A DNA stretch of 64,000 nucleotides, from positions 44,178-108,177 of the forward strand of contig CALVMV010000004.1 of assembly GCA_944349375.1 (NCBI GenBank), written 5' to 3'. Numbering within the stretch: the stretch's first letter is position 1; every line of letters begins with the position of its first letter. The position numbers were made by a program, and so were the translations under genes. Shown here piece after piece: positions 3,969 through 53,100 of this stretch. This stretch comes from an uncultured Clostridia bacterium (lineage in GTDB: Bacteria > Bacillota > Clostridia > Christensenellales > UBA1242). Below the pieces are notes generated by a model. The model worked only from the letters and a program-made list of their open reading frames with translations. It was not told the origin of the DNA and made no database searches.

Positions 3969-5546
3969 TTAAAATTTTTCAACTTCTTCATTATTTTCTA
4001 TAAAATTCTTTTTTTTTAACTCAATTTTTTTTAACCCTTCTTTATCAAGGTTATATACTTCATTACAAATTTCATTGATAAATTTTCTATCATGGGATAC
4101 GGTAATAATGACACCATTAAATTTTTTTAATACCCCTCTTATAATAGGATTAGATAATGGGCTTAAATTTCTAGTTGGCTCATCCAAAACTAAAACATTA
4201 TTTTTTTGAACTATTAATTTGGTTATTAAGATCTTAGCTTTTTGTCCTTCACTTAAATCAGATATTTTATGCTCCATTTCTTCTCTCGTAAATTTTAAGC
4301 ATCCTAACAATGTTCTAGGATTTAATTTTGAATTAGCCTCTTGTAATTCTTCAACTGGTGTTGCAGAATAATTTAAATTTTCACTATAATTTTGAGAAAA
4401 ATACCCTATTTTTAAACCACTTGTATTTTGTAAAACAGGCAAAATTGTTTTTAAAAATGTAGTTTTCCCGCAACCATTATTTCCAGTGATTGCAACTTTT
4501 TGTGGACCAAAAATTTTAAATTCTATATTTTGAGATAACTTTTTTCCACCTACTTTCAATTCTTTTATATTTACATCTATAACTTTCTTTTGATTTGGTA
4601 CTACAATATTTTTATCAACTATTAAATTAATAGCTTCCTCAACTTCAGGAATTTCCGTTAATTCTTCATCTTGTAATTTTTTTTCTTGAGCTTTTATATT
4701 TGCCATTTTTTTTGCAACTATGCGACCATTTGATGGATCCTTTTTAGATGCATTTAATGAATTTTCCACCTTTTGTTTTATTTGTCTTAATATTTCTTCT
4801 TGTTTAGCTTTCTCCCTTCTTTCGTTATAAGCTATTTGCGTTTGTTTCTCAATACCACGTCGTCGAGAGTCAATATATTCGTCATAGCTACATTTCGCTA
4901 AAGTAAACTTCGGTTTAGATTTTTTCATCAATTGTTCTATGTGTAATATTCTGTTTGCACAATTTTCAAGCAAAGTTTCATCATGAGAAATAAAAATAAT
5001 TGGCAACTCTGAACTTTTTATAAAATTTTCTAACCATTCTAAAGTATTTATATCTAAATCATTCGTAGGCTCATCTAAAAGTAAAACTGTTGGATTTTTA
5101 CATAATATTTTTACCATTTGCAATTTTACTTGCTCTCCACCAGAAAGATTTTTTATTAAAGTATTATCTTCGAGTATTTTTTTATCAAGCCCAAATTCTG
5201 TTAATTTTTTTTCTATCTTATCAAAATACTCATAGACCGCATAATCATCTTCTGAAGAGGGATTTTCTTTTAAAAAATAGTCTAAAATAGTAAACGCTCC
5301 CCAATTGTTAGATAGCTTTTGTTCCAAATATCCTAATATTTCACCTCTTGTGTCAATTGTGCCCTGCACATTACAATATGACGAAATAAGATCTTTATCA
5401 TAAATTGCCTTTAACAATGTTGACTTACCATTTCCCTCTTCTCCAATAATTGCAAGCCTATCTTCTTTATTTAATGAAAATGACAAATCTTCAATTAATT
5501 TCCTGCCCTTAATAGTTTCTATAGAAACATTTTGTAACTTTAGCAT
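3969..5546 (-). CDS. ABC-F family ATPase (two ABC cassettes, no transmembrane domain)
   Basis: Walker A GEEGNGKST and GNNGCGKTT, signatures LSGGEQ and LSEGQ, Walker B LLLDEPTNDLD and VLVLDEPTRNL. A charged K/E/Q-rich linker of about 100 aa joins the cassettes. The ATG abuts the stop of the upstream radical SAM gene (TAAATG). Confidence 0.85.
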   Translation of the reverse strand: MLKLQNVSIETIKGRKLIEDLSFSLNKEDRLAIIGEEGNGKSTLLKAIYDKDLISSYCNVQGTIDTRGEILGYLEQKLSNNWGAFTILDYFLKENPSSEDDYAVYEYFDKIEKKLTEFGLDKKILEDNTLIKNLSGGEQVKLQMVKILCKNPTVLLLDEPTNDLDINTLEWLENFIKSSELPIIFISHDETLLENCANRILHIEQLMKKSKPKFTLAKCSYDEYIDSRRRGIEKQTQIAYNERREKAKQEEILRQIKQKVENSLNASKKDPSNGRIVAKKMANIKAQEKKLQDEELTEIPEVEEAINLIVDKNIVVPNQKKVIDVNIKELKVGGKKLSQNIEFKIFGPQKVAITGNNGCGKTTFLKTILPVLQNTSGLKIGYFSQNYSENLNYSATPVEELQEANSKLNPRTLLGCLKFTREEMEHKISDLSEGQKAKILITKLIVQKNNVLVLDEPTRNLSPLSNPIIRGVLKKFNGVIITVSHDRKFINEICNEVYNLDKEGLKKIELKKKNFIENNEEVEKF

Positions 5547-6902
5547 TTACACCTCCAATTTTGATATTAATTGTTGGATTCTTTTTTTAATAATTTTTTT
5601 ACATTCATTATTTTTATAAATATTACGATCTATATTTTCAATTATATTTTTTCTAATACGAGGACACAGTCCTTGGCAATATTTTATATATTTACAAGAA
5701 AAACATTTTGAGTTATTTACATTCATTAAAGACATATTTTCAACAAAATCCAAGGTAATATCTGAATTGTCATAGGGGTCACAATTATTATTTAATCTTT
5801 CTTGAATAGTCCCAATTTTAAAATTTTCATCAAATACATTATTCCAACATCTATACAAATTGCCATTGCTATCTAAAACAATATCTTTTGTTAAACTTTC
5901 TGCTATACAAAATGTATTTAAATTTGAAACCATTAGATTTGCATTAACCAATTTTTGTTTGTAACAAATATCAAAAAGTTCTTCACGATATTTTTCATAT
6001 TCAAACAAATTAAAAGAATTTATCGAACCAAAAACTCTAGCTATATCAACAAATATGTATTGTCCAAAATATTTTTTTTCTAACAAATTTGTAATTTTTT
6101 CTAAAAATTGCTTTATACTTTGATAATTTTGTTTATCTACATTTAATCTAATTACAATTTTTATTTTATTTTCTGCACATTTATTAATATTATAAATTAT
6201 TTTATCAAATGTATTAATTTTACATTTATTTGTTCTTCGTGAATTATGGAACTCTTTTTCACCATCTATGGTAATTTGAATAAAATCACAATCTTCAAAC
6301 TGTAAATGCTTTATGAAATCTCCGTCAATTAAATAACCATTCGAAATAATATTAAAATGAAACTTTATATTCTTTTCAACGCATAAATTTTTAACTTTTT
6401 CATTAAATTTTATTATAAAATTTTTTTCTAAAGTTGGTTCTCCACCATAATAAACAATTTTTAAATCTTTAACATAATCTAAAGTAACTTTATCTATATA
6501 CTGGTATAAATATTCCGATGTTTTTATTAAATTTGAAGAACAATTTTCTTTTTTATTGAGATTTTCCCTTTCGAAACAATAAGGGCAGCAAAAGTTGCAT
6601 AAGTTTGTTATTGCAAAATCTATTTTTACACTTTCTTTTTCTGATGAGTATTTAGAAATATTATAAGTCAACTTATTTCTATTTTTTATTTCTTCATCAA
6701 AATTTGATTCAACTAAAAATTCTTGATCAATTAAAACAGCTATTTCATCTTCCGAAAATATTGCTATATCTTTGTTTTTTTTAAATAATATAATTTTTTT
6801 ATAACTTTCTAAATCTAAAACAATCAACGAACCATTATTTGTATTAAAGAGGAACTTTTTATTATTAATATTAAAAATCTCACAATAATTTGTTAATTCC
6901 AT
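5547..6902 (-). CDS. Radical SAM/SPASM-domain peptide maturase
   Basis: CNFCCPYC (CxxxCxxC) cluster plus C-terminal Cys-rich SPASM-like motifs (CFSCKYIKYCQGLCP, NECKK). Start set to the ATG at 6902 (MELTNYCEIF), which follows AGGAGTG. The longer track start at 6944 would run through a hairpin. Confidence 0.85.
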   Translation of the reverse strand: MELTNYCEIFNINNKKFLFNTNNGSLIVLDLESYKKIILFKKNKDIAIFSEDEIAVLIDQEFLVESNFDEEIKNRNKLTYNISKYSSEKESVKIDFAITNLCNFCCPYCFERENLNKKENCSSNLIKTSEYLYQYIDKVTLDYVKDLKIVYYGGEPTLEKNFIIKFNEKVKNLCVEKNIKFHFNIISNGYLIDGDFIKHLQFEDCDFIQITIDGEKEFHNSRRTNKCKINTFDKIIYNINKCAENKIKIVIRLNVDKQNYQSIKQFLEKITNLLEKKYFGQYIFVDIARVFGSINSFNLFEYEKYREELFDICYKQKLVNANLMVSNLNTFCIAESLTKDIVLDSNGNLYRCWNNVFDENFKIGTIQERLNNNCDPYDNSDITLDFVENMSLMNVNNSKCFSCKYIKYCQGLCPRIRKNIIENIDRNIYKNNECKKIIKKRIQQLISKLEV

Positions 6903-6921
6903 TTGCACTCCTATAAAATAA

Positions 6922-6946
6922 AGATGAGATAATATATATCTCATCT
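6922..6946 (-). promoter_or_regulatory. Intercistronic stem-loop between the precursor peptide and maturase genes
   Basis: Perfect 9-bp stem AGATGAGAT/ATCTCATCT with a 7-nt loop. On the transcribed strand it is followed by TTATTTTAT and then the maturase RBS. Confidence 0.4.
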
Positions 6947-9646: not shown

Positions 9647-11923
9647 TTAAAAGATTTTGACTACAATACAAGTCATATCATCTACAGCATATCCATTATT
9701 ATTTGCCAATGCTCTGTCTATAATTGCTTGTGCGTATTCCTGTGGATTTGTGGTTTTAATGGTCAATAAAAAGTCTTTATAATCACTATCGCTTCCAAAA
9801 GCATCATTAACACCATCACTTGAAATAATGATAAAATCTTTTTCAGAAAGAACAACTTTTTTTATAAGTGGTTTCGCTTCTTGAATAACTCCTATAGGTA
9901 ATGCTCCGCTTTCTAAAATCTCGCAACCATCTTCTCTCCTTACAAATGAAGATGTTGCTCCCATTTTTACAAAATCAGCAAGTCCACTTTTTAAGTCAAC
10001 AACGCATATATCAATAGTAGAAAACATTTCGTCCTTTTCCAAATTTAAAAGTTTATTTACTGATGACAAAATAGTTTCATTGTCAAAGCCTGCTTTATAA
10101 AAATTCTCTACCAATCCAATCGCTGTTTCTGATTTTTCCCTTGCCTCGTTTCCGCTTCCCATTCCGTCACAAATCGCAAACATGAATTTTTCGCCGTCAA
10201 GTCTTTCAATGCTATGACAATCTCCAGATAATGAAGAACCTGATTTATTTTGTTGAGCTATACCAAATATACAATCAAATCTAGGGGCTGTCTTTAAATT
10301 TACTGTTGTCAAACCTGCTTTAACAGAAGGATAAATTTCATAAATAGACATTTTGTTTCCGCAAATTTTTGAAACGACACTTTGCAATTTGGTTTTTTCT
10401 ACATCTTCATCTCTAACGACAAGGGAAGTTACCATCGTTCTAGCATTTTTGTCATAAACTACTGCATCTGAACAGGCGATATTATTGAAAGCGAGTTCAT
10501 CTATCAGCTTATTCTCCTTGCTATTATCAAATGAAACAATTGGCTCTACTTCGTTTGCAAGTTCTTTCATTAGTCCTGCCATTCCAAATAATTGATCAGA
10601 AATTAAAAGTTTGCTAGTATCAACATTTCCAACTAGTTGTCTATAGTTTTTATATTGATTTGTCAAAGTGTTTATCTCACTTATTAACATATTTGCTCTT
10701 CCACATCTAGAAGATAGATAGCTCGGCAAGTCTAAAATTGTGATTTTTCCTTTTTCAAGAGCTATTGTAATCATTTCTTCAAAAACTTTTTTCGTATCAT
10801 TTGAAAAAGTTCTGTGGCAATGCTTTTCTTCTGGGCAATTTTTACAAATAGAATTACAGATTTCCCCATAAAGCATTTCTTTTACTTGCTCTGGGCTCAT
10901 TTCCGATTTAATTAATTTTTTAAACACACTATTCATTTCAAAAAAAACTTCAGACAAGTTTTCAAGCCTTCTATGTAAGATTTCTCTATTTCTATTAATC
11001 AAGTTTTTAACTGCTAGTTTTTGAGAACCACTAGAGAAAAGACAAGAAATTTCATCATAACATTTTTTAGGAATAAGATAAAATATCAAACTACCTATTA
11101 AAACGGGCAAAATCTCTATTATACCGAAGGAATAATAAAACTGGAAGTAGAACCCACATACCAACTCTGACAATACAAGAGCTATTAGTGAGAATATCCT
11201 TTGTTGCGTTTTGAAGATACCTGCACACATGGCCCAAATAATTAATGGAGCAAAATAAACTGGATTATTTGAACATACCGTGCTACCAAATGCAATCAAA
11301 GAAGCTATTAATAAAGAAGACTTAGCTGAGGATATGTAAACCGATGCAAGAATCATAAAACTAGCAAAAAGTTTTAGAAATGAAAAGTTATAAATATTAA
11401 AGTTATTTAGTCCCGAAGAAAATGCCGTAAGAATTATACACGAACAAATAATTTCAAAATTTGAAAATTTAAAGGCTGTCCCCCTTAATAGTAAAGGTTC
11501 GAAAAAAGAAATACAAATGAAACAAAATAAAAGTCCGGTGATTATATTAACAACGATTAATGCGGGATTAATTCCATTCAATGCCTGAAAACAAATTGTT
11601 GCTGTTTGGCTAATAACTGCACACACAAAGAGTTCCCACTTTTTCATACCTTTTTTACACATTACATGAATATAATACGGGAATATTAAAACAAAGATTG
11701 TAACTAAAGCACAAATCCCATTCACTACGCTAAAATTAACAACCATAGCACCTATCAAATAAGCAGGAGCTAATATCCATACCTTCTGATTTGCCCAAGC
11801 TAGTGCAAATAACATAGAGAATGCAAAAGGATATATTAATCCACCGATTGAAGCAAGATTTAATACATAAAATAAAATAATAAACCCTAAAAATTCAGAA
11901 AAATAAAAAAGTTTTGTTCTCAT
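9647..11923 (-). CDS. spoIIE: Stage II sporulation protein E (membrane-anchored PP2C phosphatase)
   Basis: A polytopic hydrophobic region of about 300 aa at the N-terminus, a central domain, and a C-terminal PP2C domain (ICDGMGSG, SSDGVNDAF, DDMTCIVV). The position next to tilS matches Bacillus. Confidence 0.85.
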   Translation of the reverse strand: MRTKLFYFSEFLGFIILFYVLNLASIGGLIYPFAFSMLFALAWANQKVWILAPAYLIGAMVVNFSVVNGICALVTIFVLIFPYYIHVMCKKGMKKWELFVCAVISQTATICFQALNGINPALIVVNIITGLLFCFICISFFEPLLLRGTAFKFSNFEIICSCIILTAFSSGLNNFNIYNFSFLKLFASFMILASVYISSAKSSLLIASLIAFGSTVCSNNPVYFAPLIIWAMCAGIFKTQQRIFSLIALVLSELVCGFYFQFYYSFGIIEILPVLIGSLIFYLIPKKCYDEISCLFSSGSQKLAVKNLINRNREILHRRLENLSEVFFEMNSVFKKLIKSEMSPEQVKEMLYGEICNSICKNCPEEKHCHRTFSNDTKKVFEEMITIALEKGKITILDLPSYLSSRCGRANMLISEINTLTNQYKNYRQLVGNVDTSKLLISDQLFGMAGLMKELANEVEPIVSFDNSKENKLIDELAFNNIACSDAVVYDKNARTMVTSLVVRDEDVEKTKLQSVVSKICGNKMSIYEIYPSVKAGLTTVNLKTAPRFDCIFGIAQQNKSGSSLSGDCHSIERLDGEKFMFAICDGMGSGNEAREKSETAIGLVENFYKAGFDNETILSSVNKLLNLEKDEMFSTIDICVVDLKSGLADFVKMGATSSFVRREDGCEILESGALPIGVIQEAKPLIKKVVLSEKDFIIISSDGVNDAFGSDSDYKDFLLTIKTTNPQEYAQAIIDRALANNNGYAVDDMTCIVVKIF

Positions 11924-12020
11924 AATTTCTCCACGAAATTATTATAAAAATATTAAAAAAAAGGGCATAGTCCTATTTTGTCGGACTTTGCCACCATTTT
12001 ACAAAAATTGTCAAAAAAGT

Positions 12021-12624: not shown

Positions 12625-13314
12625 TTACATTTCAAAATAATTTATTACGCCTGCTAGAATACTGTAACAAAAATTTTTTCTATATTCTTCTGTCTGTAAA
12701 AGTTTTTCTTCTTCAGGATTTGACAAAAATCCACATTCTACTAAAATAGCCGGAATGTTTGAATAATTTAAAACAAAATAATCCCCAACTGTTACATAAT
12801 CTCTAGCGCTTTCAAAACTTTTACTTAAACTATTTTGAATGCTTTTTGCAAGATTAAAGCCCTGCTCTGAACCTTTTGCATAAAAAACCTGTGCACCTTC
12901 ACTAGAAGACAAAGGAAAAGAATTCATATGCAAACTTATCACTAAATCAGCATTGCTATTATTTATAATGTTTTTTCTTTTTTCCATTTCACTTTTTTTC
13001 TTATTAGAAGCACTTTCATCATAAAGCCCATCCATTGTGCTTCTTGTTAAAACAACATCAAACCCAAATTGCTCACAAGCTTCTTTTAGGCATAGTGCAT
13101 ATTGTAAATTTAATACACTTTCACTAATCCCTGTAGTTTTCCCAACAGCCCCTCCATCTCGACCACCATGCCCCGCGTCAATGACAATAGAGTATTCTGG
13201 TTTTGGTGATGCTGTCGCCTTAACTGCAAAGCAAGCCCCCACCACCGAACAAATCAAAATTATACTTACTAAAATAACACACAACGTCCGCTTTTTTATT
13301 GTTAAGAATTTCAT
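12625..13314 (-). CDS. cwlD: N-acetylmuramoyl-L-alanine amidase, CwlD-like (Amidase_3), membrane-anchored
   Basis: N-terminal hydrophobic anchor, VIDAGHGGRDGGAVG, LVISLHMNS, and LVECGFLSNPEE. See the finding on the chimeric 5' end. Confidence 0.8.
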   Translation of the reverse strand: MKFLTIKKRTLCVILVSIILICSVVGACFAVKATASPKPEYSIVIDAGHGGRDGGAVGKTTGISESVLNLQYALCLKEACEQFGFDVVLTRSTMDGLYDESASNKKKSEMEKRKNIINNSNADLVISLHMNSFPLSSSEGAQVFYAKGSEQGFNLAKSIQNSLSKSFESARDYVTVGDYFVLNYSNIPAILVECGFLSNPEEEKLLQTEEYRKNFCYSILAGVINYFEM

Positions 13315-15003: not shown

Positions 15004-15299
15004 TGGGTATGTGTAAACCAAGTGGCGGAATCAGTAAGCAAATAGGAAGAGTAGGTGATCTAAAAACCACTGGAGAACCAAACACTAGAAAAGATTTATA
15101 TAACGAAGATGGTAAACTCATACAGCAAAGATGGTATGGTTCAGATGGAAACGCGATTTGGGACCGGGATTGGTCTCATGGAGGTGGAGAACACGAATGG
15201 CCACATGATCATAGTTGGGATTGGACTAATCCGCAACACCCAGATAGACCTGCATATGAAGACGAATATGGGAATAAAACAAATTCTAGTTATTGTTAA
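15003..15299 (+). CDS. Small His/Trp/Asp-rich protein with YD-like dipeptide repeats (possible orphan toxin module)
   Basis: Its start overlaps the upstream stop (TAATG). Features include LYNEDGKLIQQRWYGSDGNAIWDRDW and HEWPHDHSWDW. No signal peptide. Confidence 0.45.
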   Translation: MGMCKPSGGISKQIGRVGDLKTTGEPNTRKDLYNEDGKLIQQRWYGSDGNAIWDRDWSHGGGEHEWPHDHSWDWTNPQHPDRPAYEDEYGNKTNSSYC

Positions 15300-15310
15300 A
15301 AGGAGATATT

Positions 15311-15778
15311 ATGAAAAACAAAAGTATTTACGATGAAATTTTTGATAAACCATGCTCAGTTTGTGGCAAGATTATTAAAAAAGATATTTATGATCAAGGT
15401 TCCTGTCCTTATTGTAAATGGAAAAATAACCATTTTGCCGAGATAAATCCAAATAATGTGTTGTATCCCAACCTAATCTCACTAAATAAAGCAAGAAAAT
15501 TATATAACGAAGGCAAGCCTTTTGAGCCTAATCTAGACGAATTTATGGAAGCTTTGCACAATTATAGCGAAACGCAATTTGAATATAAAGGAGTTTACTA
15601 TGCTGTTGAACTTGTTTTTAATAATAACAGCGAACCAAAAATCAGTCTTTATAATTCTCAAACAAAAGAAACAACATTTTTCAACAATGATGAAGATTTT
15701 ATAAACAATGCTAAAATTGATGGTAAACTTTTAAAAGATATATGGGAAGAAACAACTGATAGATATTGGTTACAATAA
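15311..15778 (+). CDS. CPCC-type zinc-ribbon protein, paralog 1 (immunity-like)
   Basis: CSVCG...CPYCKW followed by the NLISLNKARKLY... domain shared with the next two genes. The ATG at 15311 follows AAGGAG. Confidence 0.6.
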   Translation: MKNKSIYDEIFDKPCSVCGKIIKKDIYDQGSCPYCKWKNNHFAEINPNNVLYPNLISLNKARKLYNEGKPFEPNLDEFMEALHNYSETQFEYKGVYYAVELVFNNNSEPKISLYNSQTKETTFFNNDEDFINNAKIDGKLLKDIWEETTDRYWLQ

Positions 15779-15788
15779 CAGGGTAAAA

Positions 15789-16244
15789 ATGAAAAATAAA
15801 AATATATATGATAAAATATTTGAAAAAAAATGCAATGTTTGTGGAAAAACTCTACTTGCTAGCAAAACAGGAAATGGGGAATGTCCTCATTGTGGCTGGT
15901 ATAACAATAGACTTGGAGAAATTAACGAGAATATGGTAATTTTCCCCAACTTAGTTTCACTAAACAAAGCAAAAAAATTATATAAAGAAAATAGGCTTAT
16001 AAAGCCTGACTTAAATGACTTTCTTGAAGCATTCGAGTTTTATGGCGAAACAGGATTTGAATATAAAAACCTAATGTTCTGTCTATTTAGACATGGCGAC
16101 AATGGAATTGAAATGGGTTGGGGACCAAACGATGATGAAGTTGCATATTTCAAAGACAAGGAAGATTTTATCAAAAACGCAAAGATAGACAATGAATATG
16201 TCCGAGATATTTGGAATAAAGTTGAAAATCCTTGCTATTTATAA
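15789..16244 (+). CDS. CPCC-type zinc-ribbon protein, paralog 2 (immunity-like)
   Basis: CNVCG...CPHCGW plus the shared C-terminal domain. The last 65 nt are nearly identical to the 3' end of paralog 3. Confidence 0.6.
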   Translation: MKNKNIYDKIFEKKCNVCGKTLLASKTGNGECPHCGWYNNRLGEINENMVIFPNLVSLNKAKKLYKENRLIKPDLNDFLEAFEFYGETGFEYKNLMFCLFRHGDNGIEMGWGPNDDEVAYFKDKEDFIKNAKIDNEYVRDIWNKVENPCYL

Positions 16245-16292
16245 AAACTAAAAATGTTTGTTTGTGCGGAAAAAATATGATATAATTTAATT

Positions 16293-17315
16293 ATGAAAAG
16301 AACAGTCAAAAATTTAAACAATATATATGAACCTGTATTTAAAAATGTTGATAAGATGACAAAATTCCTAAGCAAGAATTGTGTTGACCATGCATTAGAT
16401 TTTCATTATGGGCACAGAATCAAAATTGGCAATCAATCTACAAACGAATTATACCCAATTCCACTTTTTCGCTTTAAACTGAAAGGAATAAAAACAGAGA
16501 CTTTTTTTGATGTCTATACGAACAAAAACTATATTGGCTATATCAAACTTTATCCAAACAAAGAAGAGATTTTATCTCTTAATTTGGAAGTTTTTGCAAA
16601 TCTCAAATATCTTATATATGGTTATAATTATCAACAAGAACTTTATAACTCTGAAGATTTAAAAGAAACAAAAAACAATATCGAAAAATCAAAAGATACA
16701 AAATTTATTATCTATGCCGACTTTAAAAATCTTGAACAAATTTTTAGTGTAATAGAAAGTCTTACAGAAAAACCAACTCAAAGATTTTCAATGGCAAACT
16801 ATAAATGCAACTGCGGACATTATGTAACAATTGAATCATACAACGGCACTTGCCCAGTTTGTGGAAGGGACGGCCCATTTAAAAGAAAATACAAAACAAA
16901 ATGCCCTGTGTGTAAAGCAAATTGTTTAAAAGACCAATATGGAAATGGTGAGTGTGAAAACTGTGGTTGGAAATTGGATAAATACGCACATAAATTTAAA
17001 AACAGAGTTGTTTATACAAACCTAATCTCATTAAATAAAGCGAAAAAATTATATAAAGAAAATAAACCTATGAAACCCGATTTAGACGATTTTCTTGAAG
17101 CGTTTGAACATTATAGTGAAACAGGATTTGAATATAAAAATGTTGGTTTTTCCTTATTTAGAAATGGCGAGAATGGCATTGAATTTAGTTGGGGTCCTGA
17201 GCCATGTGGCACAATATATTTCAAAGATAAAGAAGACTTTATTCAAAACGCCAAGATAGACAATGAATATGTCCGAGATATTTGGGAGAAAGTTGAAAAT
17301 CCTTGCTATTTATAA
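16293..17315 (+). CDS. CPCC-type zinc-ribbon protein, paralog 3, with an extra N-terminal domain of about 190 aa and additional Cys pairs
   Basis: The C-terminal 140 aa align with paralogs 1 and 2 (CENCGW...NLISLNKAKKLYKENKP...IDNEYVRDIWEKVENPCYL). Confidence 0.6.
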   Translation: MKRTVKNLNNIYEPVFKNVDKMTKFLSKNCVDHALDFHYGHRIKIGNQSTNELYPIPLFRFKLKGIKTETFFDVYTNKNYIGYIKLYPNKEEILSLNLEVFANLKYLIYGYNYQQELYNSEDLKETKNNIEKSKDTKFIIYADFKNLEQIFSVIESLTEKPTQRFSMANYKCNCGHYVTIESYNGTCPVCGRDGPFKRKYKTKCPVCKANCLKDQYGNGECENCGWKLDKYAHKFKNRVVYTNLISLNKAKKLYKENKPMKPDLDDFLEAFEHYSETGFEYKNVGFSLFRNGENGIEFSWGPEPCGTIYFKDKEDFIQNAKIDNEYVRDIWEKVENPCYL

Positions 17316-17326
17316 AATAAAAAATT

Positions 17327-17355
17327 AAGCATATCAACCGATATGCTTTTTTTTA
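17327..17355 (+). terminator. Intrinsic terminator of the cargo operon
   Basis: AAGCATATC (17327-17335) pairs with GATATGCTT (17340-17348), followed by a T-run. Confidence 0.7.
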
Positions 17356-17399
17356 CACTTATAAAATATGTGTCTTTTTTCTATTAAAATTTTAAAAAC

Positions 17400-17576
17400 T
17401 TACTGTCCTAACTTGACATCTACTCCGCCGTACCCAGCGTCAATCACAATGGTATGCACCGCCTTCGGCGAACTTGTCGCTTTAACCACATAGCAAACAC
17501 CGACAATTAAACAGATTGCAACTAGAACAACCAAAAGAATGGCACAATGCGTCTTTTTTATTGTTAAGAATTTCAT
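17400..17576 (-). pseudogene. Displaced cwlD 5' fragment 1 (58 codons)
   Basis: Translation MKFLTIKKRHCAILLVVLVAICLIVGVCYVVKATSSPKAVHTIVIDAGYGGVDVKLGQ*. It parallels intact CwlD up to GG-x-D and then diverges into the junction string. The Zn-ligand His is replaced by Tyr. Confidence 0.7.
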
Positions 17577-17609
17577 ATAATAACATATTTTTATTCTTCG
17601 TTTTTTATA

Positions 17610-17635
17610 ACAAAAAAGAGGATATTAATATCCCC
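17610..17635 (-). terminator. Intrinsic terminator after the minus-strand gene pair
   Basis: The minus strand reads GGGGATATTAATATCCTC followed by TTTTTTG. Confidence 0.55.
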
Positions 17636-17760
17636 AATTTTCTAACTTAAACCCTTTTGAATTTATTTCTCCATAATCACCATATAATTTAAAATGCACA
17701 CTTTTCCCATTTAACCCAACAACAGAAAAATCTGATTTTAGAATATGGGCAAAATTAAAC

Positions 17761-18192
17761 TCAGTTTTCGCTATTGTTGTCTTTTCTTTTTGATTCTTCC
17801 TGCTGTCTTTCTAATTCTCTTTTTCTCCTATTTTCTTCTGCTCTTTGCATCTTTATATCATAATCAGGATCTTTCGATCTATAATAATCTAAATTTACTT
17901 TTTTAAAATTTTCTTTGTAAAATTCTCTTGCTTTGTCAATTGCGTAAAATCTATTTTTAGAAAGATTTTTTAATATATCATCTTTGTTTTTCTCCCAAAA
18001 CTGCTTGTATTGATTCAAGCTCATATCGTTTGCCCCACCGCTAAAATTAGGATTCTCATTTTGCAAATCATCAGCTTCCCAGCCACAATATTCACATATA
18101 TCAAAATCATGTGCAATATTACCTAAGCCACATACCTTACATTTATTTTGTACTTGTTCGATTAATTTTTCATTTTCTACTACTCTACTCAT
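17761..18192 (-). CDS. Cysteine-rich CPCC domain protein (immunity-like)
   Basis: CKVCG...FDICEYCGWEADDLQNENPNFSGGANDMSLNQYKQ matches the recalled Cys_rich_CPCC pattern. The tail is K/E/R-rich. Confidence 0.6.
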   Translation of the reverse strand: MSRVVENEKLIEQVQNKCKVCGLGNIAHDFDICEYCGWEADDLQNENPNFSGGANDMSLNQYKQFWEKNKDDILKNLSKNRFYAIDKAREFYKENFKKVNLDYYRSKDPDYDIKMQRAEENRRKRELERQQEESKRKDNNSEN

Positions 18193-21329: not shown

Positions 21330-22166
21330 TTAAAATTTCGGAATGTAATCTTTTTTTGCACTTGCTAAATCTTGAAAATATCCATTATTTAGACCAATTT
21401 TCTGAGCATGCTCCAAAACAGCCTTGTTCTCTAATGGACTAAGTGTTCTAGATATTGAATCATTGATAGGTGTGAATTGTCCCATTATACTTATTATAGG
21501 ATTTGGAATATTGTTTTTGATTAAATCAAGAACATTATAACTATTTTTTATATATCCAGGCAAAATAAGATGTCTTATTAAAACGCCCTGCCGCATAACT
21601 CCTTTTTCAATAATATTTTTCTTTAACAAACTCATTTCTTTTATAGCTTGCAACGAAATTTCGCAATAATTATTTACCAAAGAGAATTTCTCAGCAAGTT
21701 TATTATCACTATATTTAAAGTCAGGTAAAAAGATATCTACAAAAGCTGAAATCTCTTTTATTTTTTCTACATTTTCATATCCCCCACTATTCCAAACGAC
21801 TGGTATTGAACATTTAAATTTTTTAAAAGTTTCGATTAAGAGAGAAGTAAAGTGAGTTGGCGAAATAAACTCTAAGGTATTATACTTTGAATAATCGAAT
21901 CGGTTTAAATATTTTGCAAACTCTTCAGGAGAGTATTCTTCGCCCTGTAAAGAATTTGATATTTTATAATTTTGACAATATTTACACTTTAAATTACATC
22001 CTGCAAAAAAGATAGCAAGAGTCCCTTTATCTCCAGTAATGCAAGGCTCTTCCCACATAAAGTTTTCTATAATTTTTGAAACTACAATTTTGTTTTTCGC
22101 CCCACAATAACCTGATGAGATTTTTCTATCTACTTGACAAAACCTTGGGCAATCTTTACACATCAT
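21330..22166 (-). CDS. Radical SAM protein, PflX-like (homolog of glycyl-radical activating enzymes)
   Basis: CNLKCKYCQN CxxxCxxC motif plus an N-terminal Cys cluster (CKDCPRFC). Confidence 0.7.
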   Translation of the reverse strand: MMCKDCPRFCQVDRKISSGYCGAKNKIVVSKIIENFMWEEPCITGDKGTLAIFFAGCNLKCKYCQNYKISNSLQGEEYSPEEFAKYLNRFDYSKYNTLEFISPTHFTSLLIETFKKFKCSIPVVWNSGGYENVEKIKEISAFVDIFLPDFKYSDNKLAEKFSLVNNYCEISLQAIKEMSLLKKNIIEKGVMRQGVLIRHLILPGYIKNSYNVLDLIKNNIPNPIISIMGQFTPINDSISRTLSPLENKAVLEHAQKIGLNNGYFQDLASAKKDYIPKF

Positions 22167-22218: not shown

Positions 22219-22572
22219 CTAACTTAAAATCACTATCGTAATACCAGGGTTATTTTTCCCTAGGTCTTCGTCTCCCGTTAACTTTTTATCTAAGTTTAAA
22301 ATTTCGCTAGTTGTCCTATCAAAATAATTCCACCTATCCCCAAAATAAAAATCCCTTATTTTTCTTTGTCTTTTTAAATTACTTAGATAATGTCTAGTTT
22401 CTAATAATATAGCTCCACCTTTACCATGCGAGCCGTAACCATGCAAAATTTTTATAGCTTTTTCTTTCGCAAATTTTGCTCTTTCTAGTTCTATTTCTAC
22501 TTTTGCCAAAGCAACATCTAATGGCGGCGATCCTTCTTTTAAATCAATAACCCACATTTTATCTCCTATCAT
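22219..22572 (-). CDS. Smr domain protein
   Basis: The ILHGYGSHGKGGAI motif is typical of Smr/MutS2 C-terminal domains. Confidence 0.65.
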   Translation of the reverse strand: MIGDKMWVIDLKEGSPPLDVALAKVEIELERAKFAKEKAIKILHGYGSHGKGGAILLETRHYLSNLKRQRKIRDFYFGDRWNYFDRTTSEILNLDKKLTGDEDLGKNNPGITIVILS

Positions 22573-22606: not shown

Positions 22607-23347
22607 TTAACCCTCCATTATCATTTTGTCTGCAATTAAAGCAATCAATTCTCCATTTGTAGGTTTCTCATTGCTACTATAAATTTTTAAACCGAACAAT
22701 GTGTTTATATTCTCAATTTTTCCTCTGTTCCACGCAACTTCTATTGCATGGCGCATTCCTCTTTCAACTTTTGAAGAACTTGTTTCGAATTTTTCTGCAA
22801 TAGTAGGATATAATCTCTTTGTTATTGATCCTATAATTTCTGGTTCCTCAACAGCTAATTTAACTGCTTCTCTTAAAAACTGATAACCTTTTATATGGGC
22901 AGGAATACCAATGCTAATAAAAATATTTGATATTTTTTCATCAAGCTGTTTTTCTTCTTTGCTTTCCGTTACCTTTTCTTCCATAAGATTTTCAATTCTT
23001 TCTGCCAAATTTTCTGGCATAATTGGTTTAACCATAAAATAACTAGCGCCTTCTTTAATTGCTTTTGAAACAAAACCGCTATGTGAAAGATTGGAAATAA
23101 ATATAACCTTAGGCATAGCGCTACCTAAACTTTTCTTTAATGAAGAAAGAACTAAAAAGCCATCCATTCCTGACAACATGATTTCCATAACCAATACTTG
23201 AGGTCTTTTCTCTTCCACATCTTTTATCACTTCTGATGCAATAACACTGCTACCTATAAAATCGAACTTATCATTTTCTTTAAAATATTTTTCTAATTTT
23301 TTATCTTCGGAATTGTCTGCTAAATAAACTGAAATTTTGTTTTCCAT
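22607..23347 (-). CDS. spo0A: Sporulation master regulator Spo0A (atypical receiver domain)
   Basis: The C-terminal domain aligns with B. subtilis Spo0A (GIPAHIKGYQFLREA..., SSKVERGMRHAIEVAWNRG, KPTNGELIALIADK). The receiver domain has Glu in place of the phospho-acceptor Asp (VLVMEIMLSGMDG). Confidence 0.9.
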   Translation of the reverse strand: MENKISVYLADNSEDKKLEKYFKENDKFDFIGSSVIASEVIKDVEEKRPQVLVMEIMLSGMDGFLVLSSLKKSLGSAMPKVIFISNLSHSGFVSKAIKEGASYFMVKPIMPENLAERIENLMEEKVTESKEEKQLDEKISNIFISIGIPAHIKGYQFLREAVKLAVEEPEIIGSITKRLYPTIAEKFETSSSKVERGMRHAIEVAWNRGKIENINTLFGLKIYSSNEKPTNGELIALIADKMIMEG

Positions 23348-23498
23348 AAATTACTCCTTAAAATTCGCTTTCCTTTTTGCGACAAATAAAAGATATCACA
23401 ATTTTTTGTAAAAAAAAATCATAACTTGCGCTACTTTTTGGCGAGTTATGATTGTTTTTGTTGAAATTTGTCGAAGTCTTTGTTTAACAAAATTGTTG

Positions 23499-24836
23499 TT
23501 ATAATGTTTTTCCAATTAATTGATAATTCATAGTTCCATCTATTGGTGCTCTATAAAGATAATAATTTTCATCTGTTGATTCTTCTGTATCAGAACTTGT
23601 TTGATTTTCAAGTTTAGCAAAATAATAAATGTATCCGTCGCTGAATCCATAAGTTCCAGAAACTATTTCTGTCATAGTTACAACATTTTCTTCACTTAGA
23701 TCGACAACTGAGATTCTATTTATTTCAGTGGTTGTTGAATAATAAATCCAGCCATTGTTTTCAAATAATAAATCAAATGTTTCTTCTGAAGAAATGATTT
23801 TCTTTGATGATCCATCTAAAGTTTTATAAATTAAAGAACCGTTTGAAGATAAAAAGCAATACCCTTCTCCCACCTTCATCACATTTGAAATTGAATCTGC
23901 TGAATAAAATCTTTTATCTCCATCAAAGTGATTATCTGTTAAAGTTAAGTCTTTATAAAAAACTTCTATGTCCGCATTTAATTTGTCGGCTGTATAAAAT
24001 ACTATATCCCCACATCTATCAACTAAAGAAATTTCATTATTTTCTGAATAAGAAAAATCTTTTGTTTGAGAGTTTGCAAAATTAACTGACTTAATTTCAA
24101 TTTCTCCATCATCGTTAGTCGTTGTATATAATATTTCTTTGATTGTAGAATTTTCATCAGGCATTACAAAGCTTTCAACACTTTGTGCAAGAACTTTTCT
24201 CTCCCCTATATTATCACCTATTTTGATAGAAGAAAGTTCATATTCTTCATCACTATTTTGTGCACAAATAATGTAATAATAATTTCCGTCAGAACCTTTT
24301 TGAACAGTAATCTCTGATTTATCATCGTAACGAGTAGTATAAATTTCTTTTAGATTATCACCATTGAAAGCAACTCTGAACAATGTTACTCTTGAGTAAT
24401 CATATTCAAGAGAAGATGTTTTGTGAGTGTTTGTAGAAGTAAAATATAAATAAGAACCTAAAGCGAACATATCTTGATTTTGATATCCAACAAATCTATC
24501 AGAAACCTTTTCTATGTTTTCTGGGCTAGAATCTTTTTTGTTTGAATCTTCTATTTCAGAATCAAAAACAAAATCCTTGCTTAAATCTATTCTTGATAAA
24601 TACCCTGTTTTTGCTGCTTGGTCGTAGTCAAAAGAATCCCCACTAGCATCAGTATAGCCATTTGCATAATATAGATAATCACCAATTTTAGCAACCTGTC
24701 CTCCAAAATATGAGATTTCATCAAAATAAATAGGATTGCCATTTTTATCATAAACATTGCTAACTGTAGCACAACCAGTTAACAACAATGCAACCGAAAA
24801 TATAACTGCAAAAATTTTTAAAAATTTAGTTTTCAT
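23499..24836 (-). CDS. Lipoprotein, probably a beta-propeller-type repeat protein
   Basis: Lipobox LLLTGC after a signal peptide. Recurrent Y-rich blades (YLYYANGY, YLYFTS, YYYIICA, IVFYTA, WIYYST, YIYYFA). Confidence 0.6.
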   Translation of the reverse strand: MKTKFLKIFAVIFSVALLLTGCATVSNVYDKNGNPIYFDEISYFGGQVAKIGDYLYYANGYTDASGDSFDYDQAAKTGYLSRIDLSKDFVFDSEIEDSNKKDSSPENIEKVSDRFVGYQNQDMFALGSYLYFTSTNTHKTSSLEYDYSRVTLFRVAFNGDNLKEIYTTRYDDKSEITVQKGSDGNYYYIICAQNSDEEYELSSIKIGDNIGERKVLAQSVESFVMPDENSTIKEILYTTTNDDGEIEIKSVNFANSQTKDFSYSENNEISLVDRCGDIVFYTADKLNADIEVFYKDLTLTDNHFDGDKRFYSADSISNVMKVGEGYCFLSSNGSLIYKTLDGSSKKIISSEETFDLLFENNGWIYYSTTTEINRISVVDLSEENVVTMTEIVSGTYGFSDGYIYYFAKLENQTSSDTEESTDENYYLYRAPIDGTMNYQLIGKTL

Positions 24837-36646: not shown

Positions 36647-36800
36647 CTTGAAAATTATATCCACAACTTGTCCACATTAAAACAATCTAAATAATCTACA
36701 AAAAAAATTTTTTCGACAAAAAACATACTATATATAGTATCACAAAAAAGTTATCCACATTTAAACATTGCTTATTAAAATTATTATTATTTAATCAAAA
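36638..36800. promoter_or_regulatory. Candidate oriC (DnaA boxes plus an AT-rich unwinding region) in the dnaA-dnaN spacer
   Basis: Boxes: AGTGGATAA 36638-36646, ATATCCACA 36657-36665, TTGTCCACA 36668-36676, and a perfect TTATCCACA at 36751-36759. A 16-nt palindrome ATACTATATATAGTAT lies at 36725-36740 and (ATT)4 at 36780-36791. Almost pure A/T sequence follows. Confidence 0.7.
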
Positions 36801-36928
36801 AAATAATAAATAAGATATCTAAAAAATGGCGAGAAAATAAGGCGAAAAAATATTTTAAAAAATCGCTAAAAAATGTTGATAAAAAGTTTTAAATGTGTTA
36901 AAATTAATCTTGTTAAGGAGATTAATTT

Positions 36929-44028: not shown

Positions 44029-44341
44029 TATTTTCTCCTTTTATGACACGAATACATTTTATAATAAAAGCTTATAATTACAAAGAAGATTTTTGACTAA
44101 AAAGAAAATTTTGTGTCGAATAATAAAACAATATATGCAAATAGCTACATATGTTTTAATTATTTTTTAATGTTTATAGTCTTTAAAAATAAAGCATTTA
44201 TCACATTTTCGACAATAATAACTATTTATTTACATAAAAAGAATTGACAAATTTTAAATAAAAAAATAACTAAATAGCTTTATCAATTTTTTATGAAATG
44301 TATTTAAAATAGATATGATATTTTACTTAACAAAAGACAAT

Positions 44342-44372
44342 AAAAAATACGACTTAAAAAAGTCGTATTTTT
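44342..44372. terminator. Bidirectional intrinsic terminator downstream of rubrerythrin
   Basis: ATACGACTT (44347-44355) pairs with AAGTCGTAT (44360-44368), flanked by A and T runs. Confidence 0.65.
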
Positions 44373-44395
44373 AAATTGTTAATAAACAATATTTT

Positions 44396-49983: not shown

Positions 49984-50184
49984 TAATTTTTTTTAAAAAA
50001 ATAAGACTGAAAAAGTCTTGTTTTATGTAAAGAAAAAATGTTTTATTATAAATTAAATAAAAAATATTTTTGTCGTAAAAGATCAAAAAATGTTTGATTT
50101 TAATTTATGAAAAAGATATAATATTCTATGTATTAAACTTAAATAAAAAAACAAAATAAAATTGTCGAAAAAAGGGAGTTTATT

Positions 50185-53100
50185 ATGTCAAAGAAAATAA
50201 TTAAAAAATTATCAACTCTTGCTCTTGCAATTCTTAGTTTGGGAGTTGTTTTTTTGATGTTAGGATTGGTTAATTTAAATTCTAAGGCAGAAGAATCTTT
50301 ATCTGATAATTCTGTTAACTTTGATCAGTCAGAAGCTTGGGTTGATGAAATTGTATTAGGTGCGGCTTCAATTACAAATGAAAACCATTTTGGTAAAACT
50401 TGTATGGTTATTGATAGTGCTGAGGATTTAGCGCAGGTAGCATATGAAGTTTCGCAAGGGACAAACTCATCTTATACGAATGGTTATTTTTATTTGGCTC
50501 AGGATATTAATTTGCGAGGGAAGTTGTGGACTCCTATTGGAACGACAACCCATCCTTTTTCAGGGACTTTTTTCGGTAATGGATATAAAATTTCAAATGT
50601 TGTGATTTCTCAGGCATCCATAATTTCTGGCAACGATATTGGTTTGTTTGGTGCCGTTACTGGTTCTATTGTTGATTTAACTGTAGAAGGGGCGTTTGGT
50701 GTATCCTCATTAGTAGATTCTTCAACAAATAATATTGGACATATTGCAGGAAGTTTGCAAAGCTCGGGAGAAATTATAAACTGTTTTGATGAAATGATTG
50801 TTTCACTTCAAGATGGATTTAAATCTATTGGTAATACGGCTTCTTCGGCTAAAGTAATTTATCCTTCAAGCAAAAATGGTATCGAAGAAGGATTAACTAC
50901 CGTCGAAGATATGCAATCTAAAATATCTTTTAATGGAACTCCACAAACAGGATATTCAGTTTATTACAATACAAATGTAGCTGCAACTAGTGGCGATATA
51001 GAGGGAACTGGTGTAGGATTTTATCAAAATGGAAATTATATTTTTTCAGGAAATAAAGAAGAATCTCAACAAGTAAGAGTAGCTTTTGCAAATGTTTCTG
51101 AAGATACATATTCAAGTATTATTACTTTAAATAATCCTTTATATTTTTCTCAAACACCTTTACTTAGAGAATCTGCCGTTGGAAGCCAAGTTTATGTTTT
51201 AAGAACGGGTTACAAAGCAACATTTTCTGCGCCTTCATTAGAAAATAGTGGAATTGTAAACATTTCATGGAATCAAGCGACAGTCAATGTTTCTTACAAT
51301 TATGGCTATGGCTCAAGAACGGTGAATTTTGAAACTCCTTATGACAATCCTTGGACTAACGTAATTGCTACAAAAGAAATTGTAAGGCTTGGTTATCAAT
51401 CTAATACTTTATATAGTGAATCTTCAATGCAAACTCTTCTTAATACAACTGATAGAGCGAATTATGTTTCTTATTATGCAAAGAACGGAGATTGCGTTTA
51501 TATAAAATGGTCAGATCCAAAAAATTTGACAGGTAAATTATATGTTGGTGCAGACACTAACGAAGGTGGCTCTTTTAAAAATCCTTCTGCAAGCAATGCT
51601 TATTCAAATTTAAATGTTTCTGGTGCAGATGTTCTTAGTCAATCTTCAAATTATAGCGATCTTTCTAATATAATTGCTGGGCAAGATGTTGTTATCAATT
51701 TCTCATTAAATTCAGGTTATACATTCCAATTAGCAGGATTAGGAACAAACTTGCTTACAAAAAGTTCTTGGGACGGAACAGGGATTACTAATTTGACTAC
51801 TGGAGCTTATACATATTACCCTAATTCGACCGGAAAGGATAGCGACGGTCAAAGTTATATTATCGGTACAGATGGAGGATATTATGATGCATATACTCCT
51901 ATAGAAATTAAGGTGGAAAAATCAGATAGTAATTTCACTATTACAATTAAAAACATCGTTGATAACGGTGGAGAAATAGTTTTATTGTTCGGAAGAGAAC
52001 AGAAAGAAATATCTATTCAAGGAACAGGTTTGGATAGATTAAGCAGTGCCACTATAATTAATCACGAGGCGAGCCAAACTTCTTTAGATTGGGAAAGCAA
52101 AACAATAACTACCAAAATTGGGGAATCTTTTGATTTTGTTGTTTCATCAGTAGGGCAAGATTATTTTATCTTATCTAGATCGGTAAATGGTTTTGTTTGC
52201 GACAATATCATTGAAGAAGAAGAGACCCCTGTTGGAGAAAGTAAGTTTTATCAAAAAATTACATTTGAAATAAATGCCTTTTCTCCAGAACCAGCTGTAG
52301 AAGATTATTATATAACACTAAATATTAATAGATTATTAACTTATATAAAAGTTCAAATCGGTGAAGAAGGAAAATTTTTTGATAATGTTGCAGAAAACAG
52401 AAAGGCGACTGTTTCTGTTTCAAGTTCGGGAATAGAAAGTATGTCAACTAATAGTCAAGTTACATTACAGGTCCCTATGACAACAAACACGACTATTACT
52501 TTTAATGCAAATGGATTTTATTCTTTAGCTTCTGTGGACGGAGTAAGTGTTCCTTTTGAAAACAATGCTATATCTCAAACTTTTTCAAAATTTTCTAATG
52601 ATCCTTCAGCTCCAGCTTATATCATAACATTTAATCCAACAAAGAATTATTATAATTTAAACATAGTTTATATGATAGATGGGATAGAAGTTTCTAAAGA
52701 AATCGCTGAAAAATTTGTAAAATTTAATGGAAAAACTTCAAGCTTAGACTTTGAACAAACAGAAAATTACTCTTTAAAACTCACAGAATCAGCGAAAACA
52801 TGGTTAAAATATGATTTTTCTATCCAAGCTAGCGATTTAGGAAACAATTCAACAGGATATCAAGCTTCTGTATTAGAAGGGGCAAGTTCTGGTCTGTTAA
52901 ATGCTTCTTTCGATTCTGAAAACGCAACAAGTTCTTTTAATTACAAACCAGGAACTTTTAATTCAACTTTAACTATTAATTTGTCGAGAAAAGAAATTAA
53001 TGTAAACTTTAATAACTTAACACTAAATGATGATAAAACAATTCTTCCAGATTCTAGTTCTCTTTATGGGAGTATGACTTTAAAATATGATTATAACGGA

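Follow-up and report, generated by a model that had tools for sequence, protein, structure and literature searches.

All Spo0A proteins studied to date are regulated by phosphorylation of an aspartate (C. difficile mutagenesis study, bioRxiv 10.1101/2022.02.07.479450), and this phosphorylation is regarded as the universal entry into endospore formation. In other families of response regulators a class of pseudo-receivers, or aspartate-less receivers (ALRs), is known, in which replacement of the acceptor aspartate by Glu and of the second acidic-pocket aspartate (position DD2) by Asn are the commonest changes, with the first pocket aspartate (DD1) and the conserved Lys usually retained and forming a salt-bridged pocket (PMC4395418, PMC12632262). 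Glu can mimic phospho-aspartate by way of the conserved Thr/Ser and Lys, and partial phosphomimicry by Glu has been described for many response regulators (PMC12632262, PMC4395418). Here we analyzed a spo0A gene located at positions 22607..23347 on the minus strand of a 64,000-nucleotide (nt) stretch, referred to below as the window, from an uncultured Clostridia bacterium of the UBA1242 lineage (GenBank assembly GCA_944349375.1, contig CALVMV010000004.1, positions 44,178 to 108,177). The deduced protein carries Glu at the phospho-acceptor position and has lost the second acidic-pocket Asp. We consider it reasonably probable, on the strength of the sequence comparisons described below, that this pseudo-receiver Spo0A still serves as a sporulation regulator, is no longer switched by His-Asp phosphotransfer and is set mainly by the amount of the protein.

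The assignment to Spo0A follows from the whole length of the protein. The ATG-to-stop open reading frame (ORF) encodes 246 amino acids plus stop, and residues 4-244 scored 226.8 bits against TIGR02875, the NCBIfam equivalog model "sporulation transcription factor Spo0A" (cutoff 200). In addition, matches were obtained to the Pfam models Response_reg (PF00072, E 2.9e-13) and Spo0A_C (PF08769, E 9.5e-39, residues 139-241), in agreement with a receiver domain at residues 1-123 (22979..23347, minus strand), whose active-site set D11, N12, E55, S85 and K107 marks it as a pseudo-receiver, and a C-terminal DNA-binding and transcription-activation domain at residues 130-246 (22610..22960, minus strand). 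When the two halves were compared with the PDB using phmmer, the C-terminal half matched the Spo0A-C structures 1lq1 and 1fc3 of B. subtilis and G. stearothermophilus (E 1e-37), and the N-terminal half matched the receiver structures 1dz3/1qmp, 9phz and 5wq0. An AlphaFold2 model computed with 62 relatives as input reached a predicted local distance difference test score (pLDDT) of 86.6 and displayed a canonical (beta/alpha)5 receiver with five strand-helix units (strands beta1 at 5-10, beta3 at 51-55, beta4 at 80-85 and beta5 at 103-106). In Foldseek comparisons the modeled receiver was closest to the Spo0A-N structures 1qmp and 5wq0 (template-modeling (TM) scores 0.84-0.87), and the DNA-binding domain matched Spo0A-C structures with TM scores of 0.88-0.92, a root-mean-square deviation of 1.3-1.7 A and 54% identity. 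That exactly this reading frame encodes Spo0A had been proposed in the original prediction, and we take the gene to be the Spo0A orthologue of a gut lineage of uncultured Clostridia whose genomes are reduced. The protein has the architecture and the score of the Spo0A family and lacks the phospho-acceptor feature of that family, namely Asp56 with a complete acidic pocket; under the definition of the class it is also a pseudo-receiver.

The placement of the active-site residues was the same in all alignments. In phmmer alignments to 1dz3 and 9phz the query segment LVMEIMLSGMDG lies opposite LLLDIIMPHLDG and LVLDIIMPHLDG, respectively, and LADNSED lies opposite IADDNRE and VADDNRE. In this register Glu55 occupies the position of the phosphorylated Asp (Asp56 in B. 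subtilis Spo0A), Asn12 that of the second acidic-pocket Asp, Ser85 that of Thr86 and Lys107, within FMVKP, that of Lys108, so that the first pocket Asp, the Ser/Thr and the Lys are retained. Direct reading of the DNA gave the codon GAA for Glu55 (23183..23185, minus strand; ttc on the + strand) and GAC-AAT for Asp11-Asn12 (23312..23317, minus strand), the + strand reading att at 23312-23314 (AAT, Asn) and gtc at 23315-23317 (GAC, Asp); DD1 is thus kept and DD2 lost. Glu55 is also placed at the acceptor site by the AlphaFold2 model, since beta3 spans residues 51-55 and acceptors sit at the C-terminal end of this strand. The possibility that a shifted alignment would restore an Asp was ruled out by the agreement of phmmer with two receivers, MAFFT with B. 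subtilis Spo0A, the NCBIfam profile and the AlphaFold2 strand limits; the sole Asp near Glu55 is D62, the conserved "DG" of helix 3 that is present in canonical Spo0A as well. The exchange of the acceptor Asp for Glu, the exchange of the second pocket Asp for Asn and the retention of the Lys, all three of which had been read from the sequence in the original prediction together with the caution that the alignment might be shifted, therefore hold in sequence, profile and structure-model alignments alike.

A comparison with canonical Spo0A (B. subtilis, G. stearothermophilus and C. difficile; structures 1qmp, 1dz3, 1lq1 and 1fc3) shows the same two-domain architecture, a score above the equivalog cutoff, the recognition-helix signature SKVERxxRHAIEVAW, a TGTCGAA element in the gene's own promoter region and linkage with spoIIE and cwlD. 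In contrast, the acceptor Asp56 is replaced by Glu, the pocket Asp11 of the canonical proteins by Asn or a variable residue, MPHLDG by LSGMDG and TAFGQE by SNLSHS, the linker is short (246 versus 267 amino acids in total) and spoIVB is not adjacent. Relative to the ALR class the protein displays the modal pattern, i.e. a fold recognized by PF00072, Glu at the acceptor position, loss of DD2 and retention of DD1 and Lys, but its output domain, Spo0A_C, lies outside the discussion of both surveys: one contains no Spo0A example (PMC12632262) and the other mentions Spo0A only as a mutant example (PMC4395418). A member of the class with biochemical support is ChxR of Chlamydia trachomatis, which likewise has Glu at the acceptor position and was found to be a constitutive dimer and DNA binder, whereas the function considered here is derived from sequence. 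Engineered Asp-to-Glu phosphomimetics such as NtrC D54E (Klose et al., 1993, as summarized in PMC4395418) share the combination of Glu, Thr/Ser and Lys, from which partial activation without phosphorylation is expected; however, these are laboratory point mutants of otherwise canonical receivers, while the Glu of the window Spo0A is natural, is old enough to be shared by 78 species of one clade and occurs together with many further receiver substitutions. Orphan atypical regulators of the NarL/FixJ type that act in sporulation or differentiation are similar in being controlled without conventional phosphorylation, but they differ in belonging to an unrelated output family and another phylum, in the kind of spore and in their control by heterodimer formation.

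The substitution is not confined to the analyzed genome. All 120 closest proteins in a collection of 5.8 billion proteins (73-100% identity), which derive from NCBI, ENA, JGI and Logan assemblies, have Glu at the acceptor position. The first Asp, Ser and Lys are retained throughout this set, and Asp is absent from the second pocket position in every one of the proteins. When the species representatives of GTDB were scanned, 80 loci from 80 different assemblies were retrieved, all of them metagenome-assembled genomes (MAGs) of uncultured Clostridia from human, mouse, rabbit, ruminant and other guts, giving 81 species-level sequences with the window. In this set the acceptor residue was Glu in 77 sequences, Asp in 3 and Ser in 1, encoded by GAA (55), GAG (22), GAT (2), GAC (1) and AGC (1), and the use of both Glu codons indicates that Glu was retained through synonymous turnover. 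A sequencing or assembly error was ruled out, given more than 120 independent Glu-bearing sequences from several sources and the use of both codons. In a neighbor-joining (distance) tree that also included 50%-identity cluster representatives, the window sequence fell into a monophyletic clade of 78 species, 76 of which have Glu, so that the question raised with the original prediction, whether Glu is lineage-wide, can be answered in the affirmative. The nearest outgroups (P0124, P0126 and P0141; 50-55% identity) have the canonical DD...D...S...K set, which together with the monophyly of the Glu clade argues for a single origin of Glu followed by long retention. Two members, L043 and L053, have Asp (GAT/GAC) at the acceptor position together with a DD2 that is still non-acidic (Thr, Lys); because they are nested within the Glu clade, they are best explained as single-nucleotide reversions, which hints that in this clade the acceptor position can be occupied by Glu or Asp almost interchangeably.

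Beyond the clade, 24 of 92 Spo0A-like 50%-identity cluster representatives (P0121-P0270) have no Asp at the acceptor position but E (10), G (6), N (4), S (2), Q (1) or a gap (1); these 92 are the representatives with well-aligned Ser/Thr and Lys and may include both orthologues and paralogues. The strict DD-D-S/T-K set occurs in only 27 of the 92, and Fitch parsimony on a neighbor-joining tree of the representatives yielded about 35 state changes at the acceptor. With Asp lost in about one quarter of the nearest Spo0A-family cluster representatives, the phenomenon may extend well past the clade.

Across the 81 species the active-site positions have fared very differently. DD1 is Asp in 78 of them and neither the Ser/Thr nor the Lys has been lost in any, whereas DD2 is hypervariable (N 18, K 17, T 14, S 13, A 5, D 4, G 4, E 3, V 2). 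In canonical receivers the second pocket position helps to hold the catalytic Mg2+, and it is invariant in working receivers. The free drift of DD2 is the strongest indication from sequence that phosphotransfer chemistry is no longer selected for; the Lys found at DD2 in 17 species resembles the CheY D13K mutant, which is reportedly activating. At the same time the receiver is, judging from substitution patterns, under purifying selection. The 49 pairs with unsaturated dS gave a ratio of non-synonymous to synonymous substitution rates (dN/dS) of approximately 0.20 in the receiver, compared to approximately 0.03 in the DNA-binding domain, dS being close to saturation in most species pairs. The mean identity of the DNA-binding domain across the clade was 92%, and the ratio of receiver to DNA-binding domain identity was 0.64 in the Glu clade compared to 0.57 in canonical relatives. 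Hence decay of the receiver as a whole was rejected, and a specific relaxation of helix alpha1, the kinase-docking surface, in the Glu clade was likewise unsupported (conservation relative to the DNA-binding domain 0.37, canonical 0.26). Compared to canonical relatives, constraint within the receiver of the Glu clade is, in relative terms, stronger on the beta4 loop and on helices alpha4 and alpha5 and weaker on the active-site loops of beta1 and beta3. The region from Ser85 (codon 23093-23095) to Lys107 (codon 23027-23029), which covers the beta4 loop, alpha4 and beta5 (23027..23095, minus strand), carries the clade-specific motif S-x-L-S-H-S-G-F...K-A-x-K-x-G-x-S-Y-F-M-V-K-P, and an alignment of 62 relatives showed no variation at S85, L87, H89, S90, G91, F92, K95, A96, K98, G100, Y103, F104, M105, K107 or P108.

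The same residues could be taken to indicate that the receiver is activated covalently at another site, either on Asp11, on a Ser, Thr or His of the S85-x-L-S-H-S segment by a Hanks-type kinase, or on Glu55 itself as an acyl-phosphate or methyl-ester. Indeed, Asp11, Ser85, His89, Ser90 and Lys107 are invariant or nearly so, many ALR substitutions could bear other modifications, and Glu is phosphorylatable or methylatable in principle, although no Glu phosphorylation is known to contribute to bacterial signaling (PMC4395418). However, Mg2+-dependent chemistry needs DD2, a hypervariable position in these species, and no kinase gene was found near spo0A within the window or its flanks of about 10 kb on each side. 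Furthermore, the residue preceding the acceptor, which reportedly serves as an alternative phosphorylation site in CheY D57N, is variable in the clade (M, S, T, I or L). Taken together, we regard covalent activation as improbable.

Additional evidence came from the distribution of the Spo0A-binding motif, the 0A box. The heptamer TGTCGAA occurs nine times in the window compared to 4.05 expected, a number that was reached in only 3 of 100 shuffled sequences, and five of the nine copies are intergenic although intergenic DNA makes up 12% of the window. Likewise, in 81 genomic regions (1.34 Mb) 41% of the TGTCGAA boxes were intergenic, compared to a median of 9.8% for 630 7-mers of the same composition, among which TGTCGAA ranked fourth by intergenic fraction and second by intergenic count. 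One perfect putative box (23469..23475, + strand; TTCGACAAA in gene orientation) precedes the start codon of spo0A by 128 nt; it is likely to be an autoregulatory site. A perfect box 100-145 nt upstream of spo0A was present in 30 of 80 related species, against a background of 3.4% of 260-nt windows. A sigma-70 promoter scan around spo0A was uninformative, with sites no more frequent there than in shuffled sequence.

In B. subtilis, spoIIE is a classical Spo0A-activated gene. In the window, the spoIIE promoter region contains a degenerate box, TGTCGGA (11979..11985, + strand; TCCGACAAAA in gene orientation), which is followed about 36 nt downstream by a TATAAT hexamer. Among the regions upstream of spoIIE in 18 species, GACAAA, the 3' part of the extended box TTYGACAAA, reached 7.8 copies per kb (background 1.2 per kb). 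Of these copies 21 were in sense and 1 in antisense orientation; many form pairs with a spacing of 10 or 20 nt, and they lie 36-50 nt upstream of a TATAAT hexamer. These half-boxes resemble the weak, high-threshold sites of sporulation promoters.

Since the DNA-binding domain is nearly invariant and its cognate motif is enriched in promoter regions, including that of spo0A itself, we judge the regulator to be probably a working one. In the mechanism that we propose, His-to-Asp phosphotransfer from kinases or a phosphorelay would no longer turn Spo0A on. Instead, Glu55 would be held by Ser85 and Lys107, biasing the receiver towards the active, dimerizing conformation, and the clade-specific changes around beta3-alpha3 and beta4-alpha4 would add to this bias. 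The activity of Spo0A would then be set chiefly by the quantity of the protein, with the 0A box upstream of spo0A forming an autoregulatory loop; the earliest response would come from perfect high-affinity boxes, and high Spo0A concentrations would be required at weak ones like those of spoIIE. In this way sporulation in the clade would probably be started without the usual kinase signal. The original prediction, according to which entry into sporulation is not controlled by a phosphorelay or orphan kinases but might depend on Spo0A abundance or a partner protein, is thus supported in part: every claim that could be checked in sequence stood, and the loss of phosphotransfer control was strengthened by the hypervariable DD2, the selection on the receiver and the 0A boxes. 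A bolder version of this mechanism, that the whole family-level clade starts endospore formation without kinase or phosphorelay from a locked-on Spo0A whose concentration is the sole decision variable, is put forward only tentatively, and we would sooner doubt than accept it in this full form. Under such a scheme the Spo0A concentration would be determined by the 0A-box autoregulatory loop together with whatever drives the spo0A promoter.

Several points weigh against these proposals. We infer both the absence of phosphorylation and the constitutive activity, and in B. subtilis Spo0A an Asp-to-Glu exchange alone was insufficient for constitutive activity (Green et al., 1991, in the account given by PMC4395418). 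A simple equation of Glu with a phosphomimic would therefore need the other clade-specific substitutions. In addition, ChxR stays active after replacement of its Glu (PMC4395418), so that Glu may not be the cause of activity in the present case either. The perfect box is found upstream of spo0A in only the 30 species mentioned above, and spo0A is separated from spoIVB, to which it is adjacent in most spore formers. Finally, the search for kinases, which gave no recognizable candidate, covered the 64-kb window plus about 20 kb of flanks (approximately 84 kb of the genome).

The principal alternative mode of control is a receiver that remains a regulated input, with a protein partner or small ligand bound to the conserved alpha4-beta5-alpha5 face, for instance an anti-activator or a kinase-like protein whose action does not involve phosphotransfer. 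In that case a signal would continue to govern the entry into sporulation, only not via phosphorylation. We treat this as a serious alternative, albeit one that is rather unlikely. The purifying selection on the receiver (dN/dS about 0.2) is in line with it, as is the observation that the best-conserved part is a surface (beta4 loop, alpha4 and the invariant L-S-H-S-G-F) rather than the active-site loops; furthermore, the mechanisms of pseudo-receivers are diverse and the Glu-phosphomimic idea was disproved for some of these proteins (PMC12632262). On the other hand, a constitutive dimer needs the same conserved face, so that conservation cannot separate partner control from control by protein amount, and the conserved neighbors of spo0A provide no candidate partner. 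The gene is preceded by one for a predicted lipoprotein of 445 amino acids with a DUF5050 match (E 2e-8; 23499-24836, minus strand), an arrangement kept in 60 of 80 related loci, and followed by genes for a weakly Smr-like protein (22219-22572) and a radical-SAM activase-like enzyme (21330-22166), which are kept in 39 of 80 loci. None of these, nor YqeY, offered anything suggestive of a partner.

The separation from spoIVB also bears on whether the gene might be a Spo0A-like paralogue, with a canonical Asp-type Spo0A elsewhere in the genome running kinase-controlled sporulation. Many metagenomic Spo0A-like proteins have degenerate receivers and some of them could be paralogues, and our analysis covered about 84 kb of the genome. 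However, the score lies above the Spo0A equivalog cutoff, the DNA-binding domain shares 54% identity with Spo0A-C of Bacillus and shows 92% conservation among the members of the clade, the gene has an 0A box of its own, and it belongs to a conserved syntenic block near oriC that also holds spoIIE and cwlD. Moreover, the 80 GTDB species hits come from 80 different assemblies, and with genomes of about 1 Mb or less in this family duplicates of regulators are unlikely (PMC12306168). A paralogue therefore seems an improbable explanation, slightly more so than covalent activation.

Both other sporulation genes named in the original prediction proved to be intact. The ORF of spoIIE (9647..11923, minus strand), encoding a sporulation-specific membrane PP2C phosphatase, matched TIGR02865 end to end (E 1e-122, 410 bits, under the 490-bit cutoff); precomputed Pfam matches to SpoIIE_N and SpoIIE were on record, and the DGMGSG, SDG and DDMT motifs of PP2C phosphatases are legible in the translation. 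The cwlD ORF (12625..13314, minus strand), encoding the spore-cortex N-acetylmuramoyl-L-alanine amidase, matched TIGR02883 end to end (E 2e-53, 181 bits, under the 221-bit cutoff). Homologues of SpoIIE were found in 17 related loci, with 60-79% identity for the best matches, and homologues of CwlD in 27, several of each being full length; these counts refer to the same syntenic block wherever the 10-kb flank of the related locus extends to it. The rest of the window represents the origin region (mnmG, rsmG, dnaA, dnaN, rnpA, yidC, jag, mnmE, parAB and recF). The flanks contain housekeeping and glycosyltransferase genes only, with neither kinases nor further sporulation genes.

Perfect 0A boxes also occur at genes of other functions. 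One lies in the dnaA-dnaN spacer (36712..36718, minus strand; spacer 36647-36928), an arrangement reminiscent of the binding of Spo0A at oriC that is known in B. subtilis, and several DnaA-box-like sequences (TTATCCACA / TGTCCACA) stand beside it. Another (50163..50169, + strand) is situated downstream of a TATAAT hexamer and 22 nt upstream of the ATG of a giant ORF of 4426 amino acids (50185-63465, + strand), for which no Pfam match is on record. In 7 related loci a perfect box was found about 29 nt upstream of the start of a predicted surface protein. The giant ORF and the surface proteins possibly represent Spo0A-repressed surface or host-interaction machinery.

Boxes at the origin and at surface-protein genes would also be expected if sporulation had been lost or were waning in a host-dependent lineage and Spo0A had been repurposed as a general regulator of, for example, surface proteins or replication. 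This scenario would fit the SpoIIE and CwlD scores under the NCBIfam equivalog cutoffs and the inference that the lineage is an obligate symbiont or parasite (PMC12306168). Nevertheless, we consider it very improbable, because full-length spoIIE and cwlD with catalytic motifs and 60-80% identity across species are unexpected for decaying genes, the degenerate 0A boxes upstream of spoIIE are conserved, and sporulation genes occur across UBA1242 without accumulation of pseudogenes (PMC12306168).

The lineage itself has been described from genomes. A member of the Glu clade from isolate UBA11517 (L015), whose Spo0A is 74% identical to that of the window, defines the GTDB genus UBA11517, named Candidatus Caccovivens (family UBA1242, order Christensenellales), the type genome of which has 1.1 Mb and 34% GC (PMC8035907). 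Genomes of UBA1242 are mostly smaller than 1 Mb, are devoid of biosynthetic pathways and parts of glycolysis and probably belong to partner-dependent organisms; the presence of sporulation genes was called "quite unexpected", and the Spo0A active site, kinases and two-component systems are not mentioned in that study (PMC12306168). The GC content of the window, 28.5%, is consistent with this picture. In our comparisons the window most likely belongs to UBA1242 because its Spo0A groups in one clade with that of L015, the only relative for which a GTDB placement has been published; an affiliation with the order TANB77 found no support.

In our literature searches, in which the coverage of subscription journals was incomplete, no described natural Asp-less Spo0A was found. 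The finding is not categorically new, since pseudo-receivers with exactly such substitutions are common in other families. If the proposed loss of phosphotransfer control is correct, the sporulation decision can be rewired to run without two-component signaling. On the bolder version outlined above, endosporulation would for the first time be seen to have a master regulator independent of phosphorylation, as part of a minimal natural decision circuit. In genomes of about 1 Mb or less, such a circuit would make it possible to ask what information commitment to sporulation needs. The result also bears on the transmission between hosts of very abundant uncultured gut bacteria and on MAG surveys in which finding spo0A is by itself counted as evidence of a potential to sporulate under kinase control.

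A few further features of the window deserve mention. An unusually long AT-rich spacer (44029-44395) between an ORF of 102 amino acids and rubrerythrin, which has no Rfam match, contains a pair of oppositely oriented perfect 0A boxes (44114 on the + strand and 44208 on the minus strand) with a distance of 94 nt between them; the Rfam scan of the whole window returned only two tRNAs. The commonest intergenic 7-mer of 0A-box composition in the 81 related regions was TGTCAAG, with 130 matches. Read on the other strand it is CTTGACA, and the housekeeping promoters of the clade, with an extended -35 element (cTTGACA), are the probable source of its abundance. Between cwlD and spo0A (15293-18192) lie genes for four paralogous small proteins with CxxC...CxxC zinc-ribbon-like N-termini, which share the C-terminal segment NLISLNKAKKLYKENKP...FEYK... 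and of which one, at 16293-17315, is extended as a fusion; hardly any of the related loci encode homologues of them, giving the segment the look of a variable or mobile island. Elsewhere, a radical-SAM/SPASM-like protein of 465 amino acids (5547-6944, minus strand) is encoded directly upstream of an ABC-F type ATPase (3969-5546, minus strand), and its Cys-rich C-terminus suggests an enzyme of the peptide-maturase type.

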